A stretch of DNA of 64,000 nt from the NCBI GenBank assembly GCA_032718475.1, contig JAUCBJ010006679.1, forward strand, positions 1 through 64,000, read 5' to 3'. Positions 30,801 to 33,800 of the stretch are shown one piece after another. Each line of letters starts with the position of its first letter. Positions within the stretch are counted from its first letter, which is position 1. Source of the stretch: Nemertoderma westbladi (lineage: Eukaryota > Animalia > Xenacoelomorpha). Made by a program: the position numbers and the translations under genes. A model generated the notes under the pieces. That model had not been told where the DNA came from. It did not search any database and saw nothing but the letters and a program-made list of their open reading frames with translations.

Positions 30801-33800
30801 CATTCAATGGACTGGGGGCGATTTATGGGCGAATATTGGGGCGACTTACGGGGTACGGGACTCATTTCATGTATTTAAGGGCCAGGGGTGGAAGGAAAAG
30901 TTAAGCAGTATTCAGGTTTGCCTGATTACTATTAGGCCTAGCCAACTTCCTGCTGCCTGTAGAGGTGGATTTGGTAACTCGCTAGGTCTAAAGGACAAGG
31001 ACTGCCCTTAGCGGTCCCTGGCCAACAGCAGTTATTACGAGCCTGAATAAGGACTCGGAAAGTCTGCTGCTTGTGTCAGGGATTGGCGACGGGAACCGAC
31101 GACAGACCCCTAGCCAAGCCGTACTGGTTCCTGATGACCGATCCCTTCAGGGTTCGGGAAGGGTGGGATGGACACGCGAACGGGTCGACCGACTAACGGA
31201 AGAAGGGTTCGACGAGGACTGCCTTCCTGGAGTGGGTTCCATGACCGGCGTTAGTACGAGCCTGAATAAGGACTCGGAAAACCACCAACCGTTGAGGCTC
31301 ACGACGGGCTGACAGACCCCTAGCCAAGCGTACTGGTTCCTGATGACCGATCCCTTCGGGGTTCGGGAAGGGTGGGACGGACACGCAACGGGGTCGAAAG
31401 ACAAAGGAATAGACTCTACTGGCCTACCGACTGTTCGGAGCAGCTTCTCGGCCGCCGAAGCGACTACGAGCCTGAATAAGGACTCGGAACTCCTAGGTGG
31501 TTGGGTCCCTGCGATGAACCAACGGACCCCTAGCCAGGCCGTACTGGTTCCTGATGACTGATCCCTTCGGGGTTCGGGAAGGGTGGGACGGACACGCAAA
31601 CGGGTCCACCGACACGACAGACCCCTAGCCAAGCCGTACTGGTTCCTGATGACCGATCCCTTCGGGGTTCGGGAAGGGTGGGACGGACACGCAAAAGGGT
31701 CGACTGACGCCGACACTATGGTACCGAGACTAGGACCGGGGGAAAGTTGGGGAACATTAGTTTGTCTAAAATCTGAGCGAACAGTGGGTAATTAAATAAT
31801 GTACTGTAGGGATTTATATTGTCGTGTTATATTATTGTTAATATTTGGTGTATATTGGTTTGGGGTAGCCCAATTTATTCTCAATCAAGGTTCAACTGTA
31901 GGGAAGTTACATTAAAGACTATATCCAACCAATGAAACTTTTCTCAACTGCAACCTTGCATTTAAGAACGTATTCCTTCTCCACTACCAATATCCGGTGA
32001 CTGGCCGGGATTCCGTGGTCTGAAAAGTTCCACCTCCAGCATCGGCGTTTTTCCCCCATGGTGTCGGGAATAACGGCAACAAAATTGAGAATAAGACGCG
32101 GCCAACTTCAACTGGTGGAAGTTGGGAATCCTACAATACTCTTCAAACTCTCTCCGTGCTTACCCAGCACCCACTACGAGGAAACTCTGGTATTTGATTT
32201 AAGACAAAGCCGTGGTTTAATCAATCGAATTCGAATTTCGAAATCGGACTCAAATTAAAAAACTCGTAGTCGGCAGATCACATAAAGAGAGTCGTTAAAC
32301 AGGGAATGGAAGTATCGATCACACCCATTGATATAATCCAAGTTGAGCCAGGAATCTGGCATGTCGAAGTTGAAGTACAAGGAACAAACGTTGGACGATT
32401 CAGGATTACCGTTTGGGTAGTCCAGGCTGAGTACGAGACATACGAAGAACTATTTTACGATATCGCATATCTAGCTATCAACGAGGTGCTAGAATGATGA
32501 CGAATAACGTCTCCGACACCAATGAGATGGACCCCCACACAGACTCGGAGGCCGACGAGGTACCGAACGTCAAGAATATGACCCGTCGACTAGGCGCTCT
32601 CAAAGGCTGAGTCACTCGAGCATATCAACGTATAGAGAAACAACTAAGGGGAGTCGAAACACCCCTCAATGAGATACAGACTCAGCTACAAAATATCCGA
32701 AGTATCTTACAACGATATGAGAGGATGATACAAGCATATCAAGAGCTCATCCCCGCCACTGATCAGGTAAACTAACCCAGACTGGAAGAACACGCTGTAC
32801 ACCTAGATGAGTTCCGCAAACAACATCGGAGGACCCTCAGCCTCGTGAGAGGCTATGAGGAACAGTACTATAAGAGAATGGAAAGAACAGACGCAGAATC
32901 AGTGCGGACCTCCAGCACCAGGGCAGCAATTCATCGAAAGAGAATGGGGTCCTCGAGGCACCAGCACTCCAGCACTAGGAGCGAGATGCCTGGTTCAGCG
33001 CATAGTTCTCAAGGGGGCCAGCCACTCCGAGATCAGCTTCGAGAACAGAGGGCATTGGCCCTTAAAGCTCGAATGGAAGACGAATATGTTCAACTACAGA
33101 TCAAACAGGATGTATTGGCAGCCGAAATGCAAAAACGAGAGGCCAAACAACAGGCCGAACAACGTAAACGAGAGGCCGAACAACAGGCCGAACAACGTAA
33201 ACGAGAGGCCGAACAAGAGGCCGAACAACGTAAATGAGAGGCCGAACAACAGGCCGAACAACATAAACGAGAGGCCGAACAACAGGCCGAACAACGTAAA
33301 CGAGAGGCCGAACAAGAGGCCGAACAACGTAAACGAGAGGCCGAACAACAGGCCAAACAAGAGGCCGAACAACGTAAACTAGAGGCATAAATGCGTAAAC
33401 AACATGCCGAGGCTCAAGCGATTCTCATCCATAAAAAGAATGCGGATATTGCGAAACTCGCGGAATACGAATATATGAGGACGGGGAAAGGGGTATAGAA
33501 CAGAACTATGAATCAATCCCGGTCCCGGAATTAGAGAAGTCATTTACGCCACCGGCAGCAAAACCTCCGAAACCCGAGTTCCCGCCAACCATACAGTCTA
33601 CGTTATCGGCAAAAGCACCGGTATTCCATCCCCCACCGGTTACGCTTAAGAATGAGGAACCTTATTTCCCATCCAACCCCACGGTACCGAGCGTTCCCAA
33701 GTACGAGCCTGAAAAGGACTCGGAACGGGACGCCACCCCTCGATCCAACAATCCATTTACATCCACACCACAAATCCGTAACCGTGTCATCATTAAACCT

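Follow-up and report, generated by a model that had tools for sequence, protein, structure and literature searches.

The window analysed here, a stretch of 64,000 nucleotides from the genome of Nemertoderma westbladi, contains a retrotransposon that raises a puzzle: Why does each of its long terminal repeats (LTRs) carry seven modules of two alternating kinds, three of a hairpin called X and four of a larger unit called Y? The order X-s-Y-s-X-s-Y-s-X-s-Y-(13 nt)-Y, where s is a spacer, is present in both LTRs as originally predicted, and the Y copies of the 5' LTR, each of 81-82 nt, start where they had been placed (table 1). Three X copies also lie near the sites claimed for them, but their invariant core is only 25 nt long and the proposed start at 31034 takes in variable bases. 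The three X cores of the 5' LTR are identical; the copies of the 3' LTR agree at 77-81 of 82 nt for Y and at 22-24 of 25 for X. The explanation that we propose, to which the sequence lends about an even chance, is that these repeated sense-strand modules constitute a cis-acting platform for RNP assembly, X being bound by a protein of the element and Y by a host protein of L7Ae type. Proteins are expected to dock on this platform, which would clear the full-length RNA to be exported, protected, and packaged. Of the roles originally suggested, localisation and anti-silencing are, like export, packaging, and reading by ORF3, candidates.

Table 1. Positions of the LTR array, its host element and associated features within the window
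Feature	Position	Strand	Remarks
23-bp satellite (insertion site)	28997..30692	+	resumes 47195-51533
5' LTR	30693..32081	+	1,389 bp; TG...CA; GTAAC at flank
TATA-like word TATTTAA	30872..30878	+	second at 30744
Hairpin H0, upstream of X1	30932..30991	+
X1	31036..31060	+	tip of long flank-built stem, ~31005-31093
Y1	31105..31186	+	tip reads UUCA
X2	31255..31279	+	flanks form an arm in MFE folds; duplex test not significant
Y2	31315..31395	+	81 nt, one base absent
X3	31465..31489	+	tip of long stem, ~31433-31519
Y3	31525..31606	+
Y4	31620..31701	+	tandem with Y3, period 95
Polyadenylation-like ATTAAA	31791..31796	+	GU-rich stretch after; second ATTAAA at 31911
PBS-like TGG...	32113..32130	+	31 nt past LTR end, within hairpin
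gag-pol	32494..41848	+	interrupted by stops and frame changes
gag X	33702..33725	+	GAAA loop; local 7-bp flanking stem
Probable nested insertion in gag, ~2.7 kb	34547..37239	.	between 7-mer copies at 34540 and 37233; tentative borders
pol X	40239..40262	+	GCAA loop; without UA/GAA closure; long stem; between RNase H and integrase
Hairpin family W, three copies	42116..42544	+	between pol and ORF3; 82-87% identical
ORF3	43096..45283	+	stop at 43264-43266; frame change within 44711-44757
ORF3 X	43290..43313	+	GAAA loop; one stem pair A/A; stem with perfect 10-bp helix
Polypurine tract	45860..45867	+
3' LTR	45869..47197	+	1,329 bp; ATAAC directly after
3'-LTR array	46212..46878	+	X at 46212, 46431, 46642; Y at 46281, 46491, 46702, 46797

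By its sequence features, the host of the array is a decayed BEL/Pao LTR retrotransposon without env, 16.5 kb long and with a full RNA genome of ~13 kb. It has the TG...CA ends, short target duplication (GTAAC and ATAAC, agreeing in 4 of 5 bases) and polypurine tract of BEL/Pao LTR elements. Members of this superfamily are recognised by a triple Cys-His motif in Gag followed by the order PR-RT-RH-IN (PMC554778), and gag-pol has both: it encodes DUF1759, three Cys-His boxes, a protease motif, RT (YVDD, read directly from the translation), Peptidase_A17/RNase H, Integrase_H2C2, and DUF5641, with profile matches for Peptidase_A17 (E 3e-38), DUF5641 (E 3e-27), zf-CCHC, Integrase_H2C2, and DUF1759. 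The best matches of the integrase region reach at most 44% identity, and the superfamily call is made by domain content. The LTRs differ by 40 substitutions (~3%), and the 3' one lacks ~60 nt corresponding to 31840-31900 of the other. In contigs of the same family, very common in three of the four sequencing runs, different insertion flanks adjoin the same LTR end. The TATTTAA words would be promoter elements by inference only and, if the ATTAAA at 31791 serves as the polyadenylation signal, the array would lie within R.

What kind of fold would Y present? Its layout comprises a 5-bp terminal stem, two large conserved internal loops, a kink-turn (k-turn) pattern, and a C(UUCG)G tip. Over the whole element, a k-turn descriptor matches seven times on the + strand, always within Y (7 of 8 copies), and never on the - strand; no viral contig contained the pattern. 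The parts of a standard k-turn, namely C-helix, 3-nt bulge, tandem G.A and A.G, and NC helix, are all recognisable in the sequence, from which we predict a kinked, L7Ae-bound fold. Its 3b-3n and 4b-4n pairs are both C-G. Under Lilley's 3b-3n folding rules (PMC5061560, section 13; PMC5689011), the former is of a class for which metal ions by themselves do not bring about folding, and folding of Y is consequently predicted to depend on protein. Slightly more probably than not, the k-turn folds upon binding a host protein of the L7Ae family, for example, 15.5K/Snu13. It shares with the k-turns of U4 snRNA and box C/D RNAs, which are bound by 15.5K/L7Ae, the standard pattern and a 3b-3n pair of either the protein-dependent (C-G) or the box C/D (U/U) type, whereas it has neither the box D G-C at 4b-4n nor a guide and occurs in four copies per retrotransposon LTR. 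These two absences, together with a k-turn that is not terminal and the lack of an Rfam match, led us to reject Y as a box C/D snoRNA.

Variation within the family, measured as unphased shares of depth in short contigs from at most three samples, bears upon this fold. In the first pair of the C-stem, 46729 T>C accounts for 82-93% of depth and 46757 A>G for 72-86%, so the two must co-occur in most of the depth, turning U-A into C-G. The 3b-3n pair varies from C-G to U/U (46735 C>T, 32-56%; 46754 G>T, 52-60%; unphased). Another change, 46738 A>T (13-41%), disrupts a pair and has no partner among the 11 substitution rows, in which the two GA steps, the 3-nt bulge, and the CCC-UUCG-GGG tip are free of variants. 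Folding energies are unremarkable under models that ignore k-turns, with z from -0.5 to +0.6 for Y alone and -0.82 for the whole array.

The Y copies of this element also have CUGAUGA-stem-GAA, which we take to equal the core words of a hammerhead, and Y might then be a self-cleaving ribozyme as in retrozymes, the array releasing unit RNAs. A hammerhead requires the unvarying core CUGANGA...GAAA together with three stems and a cleavage triplet. In Y a G follows GAA, attempts by eye to construct stem I or III with a cleavage triplet did not succeed, and no Rfam ribozyme matched at E<=10. Moreover, most of the family depth has C at the equivalent of U4 and G at that of A14; the two matching pair changes of the family break the look-alike core. 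We have rejected this identity, which is hardly credible. SECIS elements need an AUGA/GA core, a helix 2 of 11-14 bp, and an apical AA; AUGA/GA is present in Y, but the helix above spans ~8 bp with a UUCG loop and Rfam was negative, so this candidate was discarded. A Cassandra-type 5S or Pol III module was likewise rejected, with no Rfam 5S or tRNA match at E<=10 and no tRNA gene found by ARAGORN. At the gathering score, Rfam has no match in the 64-kb window; at E<=10 a single irrelevant match lies upstream of the array, and neither the 3' X3-Y3-Y4 stretch nor the W region matches anything.

The X module consists of UA, a 4-bp stem, a 3-bp stem, a GNRA-type loop, a bulged A, and GAA. Three further copies, overlooked in the original prediction, lie on the sense strand of the coding DNA, one each in gag, pol, and ORF3. 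An X descriptor has four matches in coding DNA versus 0.05 in 40 shuffles, three of them being X and the fourth, at 43483, a distinct hairpin that we set aside. The nine copies (six of which trained the search) are all on the + strand within the element, and the next match has an E of 0.36. Elsewhere, 26 single viral matches and two metagenome matches to the X pattern are taken as chance, since none has blastn similarity to the element. The flanks of X were said to pair in spite of differing in sequence. A duplex test bears this out at X1 and X3, where z is -3.1 to -4.0 and 0-4 of 500 shuffles do as well, and fails to do so at X2 (z 0.0 and +0.15); in the coding regions the z values are -3.9 for ORF3 X, -2.0 for pol X, and -1.8 for gag X. 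Cognate stems thus lie under X1, X3, and ORF3 X, and two or three of the coding copies sit on flanking stems of their own.

Among the six sequence contexts of X no covariation of the stem was found, six of seven pairs being invariant and one broken in the ORF3 copy. A variant of X3 in family contigs, 31479 A>C (~25% of depth), stands without a compensating change in the 40 rows listed out of 186 and is absent from a second listing of family variants. The loops GAAA, GCAA, and GAAUA are presumably all compatible with a GNRA-type fold. Because the stem letters are fixed while the loop holds only the GNRA shape, X would be a sequence-and-shape site, and we propose that a zinc-knuckle protein encoded by the element reads it. 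The copies follow one another at ~2-4 kb along the element RNA, and we rate as evenly poised the joint claim that this spacing marks the whole unspliced RNA, which would then be exported or stabilised and passed on to packaging; a signal so spread would point to such an output rather than to control of a single frame.

Alternatively, the modules might work by RNA alone: X loops would dock in the internal loops of Y, with k-turns setting the angles, and thereby compact or dimerise the ~13-kb genome for packaging without a protein reader. UUCG is usually a non-docking cap, which counts against docking of this sort, as do the C-G class of 3b-3n that does not fold without protein, the tolerance of X for GCAA and GAAUA, and the dissimilarity of the Y loops to the 11-nt GAAA receptor (compared by eye). 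GNRA-type loops on long stems along the whole RNA, the two large conserved internal loops of Y and the frequent use of k-turns to direct a short stem-loop towards a distant receptor (PMC5061560) speak for an architecture that we nevertheless consider improbable.

In evolutionary terms, how did the array arise? The spacers had been described as unrelated, yet those of X1-Y1 and X3-Y3 are homologous (28/35, gaps included; none of 500 shuffles does as well), the only clear case in nine comparisons, with another borderline (21/500). Spacer lengths are maintained, the unit period is 210-219 nt, and most spacers are the stems bearing X. The array probably derives from an old tandem duplication of a ~210-nt unit of arm plus Y, after which the stems diverged and X and Y stayed alike through selection and homogenisation, the latter probably through RT template switching or gene conversion. 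The eight Y and six LTR X copies have common minority variants at array positions where sister subfamilies have the alternative variant, which indicates that the modules have also been homogenised between positions. Joints in family contigs hint at gain or loss of units, or may be mapping artefacts. In the X3 arm, the six non-private family variants outside X are either unpaired (four) or wobble-compatible (two). The array is, in this respect, a clean natural case of modules homogenised while the intervening stems co-vary.

Homogenisation leaves incomplete the argument from near-identity on which selection had been claimed, and across the family the modules are in part no more conserved than the spacers, with 7/82 variable sites in Y versus 4/35 in the X3-Y3 spacer, in part the outcome that the original prediction had named as refuting it. 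Differences between the two LTRs (X 5/81, Y 10/327, spacers 10/260) are evenly spread, which implies neutral decay after insertion and is not informative on selection. What does back selection on RNA structure is the restriction of the motifs to the sense strand, the double changes, and the X copies in coding sequence; that the modules are selected as RNA folds is very probable. The opposite view, of enhancer-like tandem repeats equalised by gene conversion with incidental folds, is compatible with the homogenisation, with the hinted unit gain and loss and with the tandem LTR repeats known in Pao (Xiong 1993). It does not account for pair-preserving double changes on sense-only motifs, for UUCG, GNRA, and k-turn being specific to RNA, or for coding X copies on unrelated flanking stems, and appears very unlikely. 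Pao resembles this element in belonging to BEL/Pao and in having repeats inside the LTR, probably within R, but those are reportedly simple tandem copies, unlike the two alternating modules with diverged stems and coding copies found here (Xiong 1993).

Which protein could read X? ORF3 tentatively looks like a DEDDy-exonuclease-like domain with C-terminal zinc knuckles. HMMER relates it to P0001 (E 9e-6) and P0003 (E 9e-5), which are 26% identical over 219 aa; a third match, P0002, turned out to be a fibronectin-repeat protein and was set aside. Leads from Atlas point to DNA_pol_A_exo1 and to zf-CCHC, with scores of 0.85 and 0.86 (below 0.9), Pfam gives an exonuclease match for P0001 at E 0.2 only and none for ORF3, and PDB sequence searches returned no exonuclease. 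The knuckles of P0001 match both retroviral NC structures and, at E 1e-7, the C-terminal piece of ORF3. Words resembling ExoI-III are present in the ORF3 alignment, in which, aligned by eye, the ExoI position lacks the acidic residue found in P0001 and P0003. Two AlphaFold models have a mean pLDDT of ~34.5, too low for fold comparison. Word-index searches gave nothing beyond one training sequence, and none of 115 candidate relatives in viral contigs was confirmed. ORF3 and X are tied by co-location in one element only. ORF3 as the reader of X is possible, if tentative; the Gag nucleocapsid is a doubtful candidate. Equally doubtful, judging from sequence, is a self-evolved control in the style of complex retroviruses, in which a captured DEDDy/zinc-knuckle ORF3 would read X and the k-turns recruit 15.5K, a protein of the host's snoRNPs and spliceosome, so that the RNA passes as a housekeeping RNP and evades nuclear surveillance. 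The element does join this ORF3 with a k-turn module and a short, repeated, easily synthesised candidate target, the 25-nt X, and the question is thereby reducible to a binding and reporter test.

A separate non-coding RNA could instead be the product, either a ~0.9-kb LTR-only transcript, which solo LTRs would make as well, or Y units of 82 nt that the exonuclease of ORF3 would trim back to the stem bound by protein, acting as a decoy for silencing or surveillance proteins of the host. The array does lie between the TATA-like word at 30872 and the ATTAAA at 31791, the terminal stem and k-turn of Y resemble small stable RNPs, the family is abundant, and DEDDy enzymes trim the 3' ends of structured RNAs (PMC5408684). 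We judge this improbable nonetheless, even slightly more so than docking by RNA alone: it leaves the three coding X copies unexplained, the ExoI position of ORF3 is not acidic and, unlike box C/D, Y has its k-turn away from the terminal stem and C-G, not G-C, at 4b-4n.

For the proposed platform, the nearest parallels are accessory proteins of Rec/Rev type, which are small and arginine-rich. In HERV-K(HML-2), Rec reads the LTR-borne response element RcRE (PMC11379458). RcRE/Rec and HIV RRE/Rev are analogous in their structured LTR RNA, an additional ORF placed after pol and ahead of the 3' LTR region, and a plausible role for unspliced RNA; they differ from this BEL/Pao element without env, with its modular k-turn array, coding copies and a candidate accessory protein that is DEDDy-like with zinc knuckles. 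Constitutive elements (MPMV CTE; SERV-K/MER11 CTE, PMC11379458; MusD MTE, PMC3362945) are likewise cis-acting structured RNAs of LTR retroelements under structural selection, but they are single and near the 3' end, in contrast to arrays of two alternating modules, and the accessible text of these two accounts mentions no k-turn. The bdelloid Juno and Vesta (Rodriguez et al. 2017, PMC5408684) are LTR retrotransposons with an ORF3 of DEDDy type, a class whose role is not established (PMC5408684); they belong to other lineages, ORF3 here adds C-terminal zinc knuckles, and no RNA module array is mentioned in the accessible text of that account. A DEDDy domain may offer a surface for bulged hairpins by analogy with Egalitarian, which binds bulged localisation hairpins (bioRxiv 10.1101/2025.08.03.668247), the I factor signal among them; Egalitarian comes from the host, whereas the DEDDy-like protein here is encoded by the element and its binding putative. 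In the literature searched, lying outside most subscription journals and Repbase, we found no description of a k-turn array in any LTR, nor of a hairpin that a BEL/Pao element carries both in its LTRs and in each of its three ORFs.

Two sets of hairpins outside the array also vary in a manner that preserves pairing. H0 has one A-U to G-C double change, phased, in a single family contig (run X4, depth 520.3), which also contains a G.U to G-C change. The W hairpins have a conserved apex upon stems with double changes.

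The LTR element, 16.5 kb long and inserted within a 23-bp satellite, lies in a window of animal DNA containing an astacin-like exon, satellites and LINE pieces. Its gag-pol region is broken, and the element is assigned to the BEL/Pao group because of its domain set: DUF1759, three Cys-His boxes, YVDD RT, Peptidase_A17, Integrase_H2C2 and DUF5641. The closest relatives of the integrase region show at most 44% identity. The two LTRs differ by 40 substitutions, of which 28 are transitions. Once a probable gag insertion of 2.7 kb is subtracted, the element measures ~13.8 kb, with LTRs of 1.3-1.4 kb; both lengths exceed the ranges stated for BEL/Pao in PMC3118150 (LTRs 0.2-1.2 kb, elements 4.2-10 kb).

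Features of the element and its surroundings
Feature	Position	Remarks
LTRs	30693-32081; 45869-47197	TG...CA termini; target duplication GTAAC/ATAAC
TATA-like word	30872
H0 hairpin	30932..30991 (+)	upstream of X1
X cores, 25 nt (starts)	31036; 31255; 31465
ATTAAA word	31791
PBS-like TGG	32082-32130	31 nt past LTR end; paired with own complement immediately upstream; unusual for priming
gag tandem repeat	33133-33386	33-nt unit; encodes coiled-coil-like stretch
X copies in coding DNA	33702; 40239; 43290	gag; pol; ORF3; + strand
Probable nested insertion	34547-37239	in gag, ~2.7 kb; strong G skew; internal tandem repeats (units 44, 69, 100 nt); several windows with folding z < -4
W hairpins, n=3	42116-42544	between pol and ORF3; 75-85 nt; 82-87% identical, apex conserved
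ORF3	43096-45283	broken by stop and frame change
23-bp satellite, long arrays	28997-30692; 47195-51533; 56401-59807
Other satellites		units 27, 33, 21/42, 147 nt
Non-LTR RT pieces (RVT_1, DUF6451)	53737-55095 (-); 2693-3241 (+)	inverted relative orientation
Host gene exons	5737-6366 (-); 13293-13892 (-)	astacin / ShK / LDL-receptor-A domains

The order originally noted for the LTR array, X-s-Y-s-X-s-Y-s-X-s-Y-Y (X a short hairpin, Y a module of ~82 nt, s a spacer), is borne out with its coordinates in both LTRs. The accompanying claim that the spacers are unrelated went too far: the X1-Y1 spacer matches its X3-Y3 counterpart at 28 of 35 aligned positions, an agreement that none of 500 shuffles equalled, the other eight of nine comparisons being weaker or not significant. 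Pairing of the flanks around X, also proposed, holds for X1 and X3 (z -3.1 to -4.0), where the cognate duplex beats every non-cognate pairing in the matrix, and fails for X2 (z about 0). Given this spacer homology and the paired flanks of X1 and X3, the array reads as an old tandem repeat with a ~210-nt unit, X probably being the tip of a long arm with a drifted stem. Spacer variants in the family contigs, assembled from sequencing runs, appear to respect the X3 arm; of the 186 variant rows, the 40 listed include six non-private variants that fall in this arm but not in X, four of them unpaired and two giving wobbles. Repeats inside a BEL/Pao LTR are not, as such, new: the title of the paper that named Pao reportedly cites tandem copies of its putative R region. 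No description of the X/Y architecture was found in the literature searched, and the sequence set of PMC3118150 may contain relatives.

In X, UA is followed by stems of 4 and 3 bp, a loop of GNRA type, a bulged A and then GAA; three of its six contexts have a complete AGUA/GAA closure, which we take to be loop-E-like. Its covariance model recovers exactly nine copies, every one on the + strand and within the element (runner-up E 0.36); six of the nine had served to train the model. A descriptor gives four matches in the internal region, three being X, where 40 shuffles average 0.05; a pattern, drawn up with the X copies already known, gives three matches against none in 2,000 triplet shuffles. 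The coding copies use two different reading frames and sit on carrier stems unrelated in sequence, with flank-stem z values of -3.9 in ORF3 (1/500 shuffles), -2.0 in pol (15/500) and -1.8 in gag (22/500); on the RNA, successive X sites lie 2.2, about 3.8 (insertion excluded), 3.1 and 2.9 kb apart. Across the six contexts the X stem shows no covariation, six of seven pairs being invariant and the remaining one A/A in the ORF3 copy. Since the stem letters are fixed and the loop varies only inside the GNRA shape, these features suggest that X is read sequence-specifically by a protein. Variant 31479 A>C of X3 (about 25%) has no partner change among the 40 of 186 variant rows listed, and is itself absent from the 11 X3-Y3 substitution rows of four runs.

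Judged by sequence, Y combines a terminal stem of 5 bp, a pair of internal loops and a kink-turn (k-turn) pattern capped by C(UUCG)G, the latter with the arrangement C-stem / 3-nt bulge / GA / NC stem ... GA / C-stem, which is the standard k-turn definition in PMC5061560. A k-turn descriptor finds seven matches in the whole element, all in Y, and none on the minus strand. In energy models, which omit k-turns, Y does not stand out (z -0.5 to +0.6; whole array -0.82), and they lend it no support. Variants of X3-Y3 come from four runs (no more than three samples) in the form of Logan contigs, their figures being depth shares of short, unphased contigs from which the diverged 5' part of Y is lost as loose ends; all 11 substitution rows were considered, seven lying inside Y. 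The pair beside the bulge changes from U-A to C-G through 46729 T>C (82-93% of depth) and 46757 A>G (72-86%), and both sides of 3b-3n vary (46735 C>T, 32-56%; 46754 G>T, 52-60%). Of the remaining three, 46739 T>A allows an additional pair and 46736 C>T (about 1%) yields a wobble. The third, 46738 A>T (13-41%), loses a pair, its partner change being absent from the 11 rows; the GA steps, bulge and UUCG tip are variant-free among these rows. According to PMC5061560 and PMC5689011, a k-turn with C-G at 3b-3n is unfolded in metal ions alone and folds upon L7Ae binding, while U.U gives the box C/D type with intermediate folding. By these rules Y is predicted to be a protein-bound k-turn; a tertiary architecture of RNA alone seems unlikely. 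A ribozyme is very improbable. This copy can be read as a hammerhead (CUGAUGA...GAA), two core positions of which the above family variants remove, and Rfam has no match for a ribozyme in Y.

Does the likeness of the copies reflect selection? In this element all eight Y copies have U-A beside the bulge and all six LTR copies of X a 5-nt loop; in the runs C-G carries most depth, and a 4-nt X loop reaches 30-40% at X1 and 56-79% at X3 (100% at both in run X4), including one 145-nt contig carrying X3 flanks. The other Y type follows at least three distinct 5' flanks in loose ends of family contigs. Variants are thus shared across positions within a subfamily, and the likeness of Y and X is therefore read as concerted evolution, purifying selection not being its sole cause. 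The expectation that modules are more conserved than spacers stands for X (0/25 listed substitutions plus the loop indel) and not for Y (7/82 variable sites family-wide versus 4/35 in the X3-Y3 spacer). That the repeats act at the DNA level or are neutral is improbable. In run X4, contigs on 30994-31699 contain a joint that returns 706 nt upstream, together with loose ends whose stem letters differ, which suggests that some subfamilies carry additional units and that the terminal stem of their Y is not the one found here.

Judging from the TATA-like and ATTAAA words, the array would lie within R, at both RNA ends. We give roughly even chances to a cis-acting RNP platform in which X would be bound by an element-encoded zinc-knuckle protein, somewhat more likely ORF3 than Gag, and Y by a host L7Ae-family protein, the two jointly controlling how the unspliced RNA is exported, protected and packaged. 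An LTR-derived decoy RNA is rather unlikely, slightly more so than an RNA-only architecture. The main part of ORF3 has no Pfam match; an exhaustive HMMER search gave three matches, two of them credible (P0001 and P0003), which align to each other over 219 aa and show a D-x-E word and later DEDDy-like words. The C-terminal zinc knuckles of P0001 match the C-terminal piece of ORF3 and retroviral NC structures, and Atlas features point, as leads only, to DNA_pol_A_exo1 with or without zf-CCHC (0.85, 0.86). In PMC5408684, bdelloid LTR elements carry DEDDy ORF3s whose role is not shown, and in bioRxiv 10.1101/2025.08.03.668247 the Egalitarian DEDDy domain binds bulged hairpins, its catalytic residues being dispensable. 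The proposed platform would resemble, in mode of action, a retroviral response or transport element as described in PMC11379458 and PMC3362945.

Structure reaches outside the array. In a single family contig, one A-U pair and one G.U pair of H0 have each become G-C, and the second hairpin family, W, has double changes at three of 27 stem pairs; the W region has a folding z of -4.9 and no Rfam match. Within ORF3, an in-frame TGA (43264-43330 region) lies 2-3 nt ahead of the long stem bearing X. A stop just before a long stem is the layout of readthrough signals. Another hairpin of different sequence, with a purine-rich G...A loop, lies ~190 nt 3' of the ORF3 X (43483-43510), and two shorter words also occur three times between the W hairpins.
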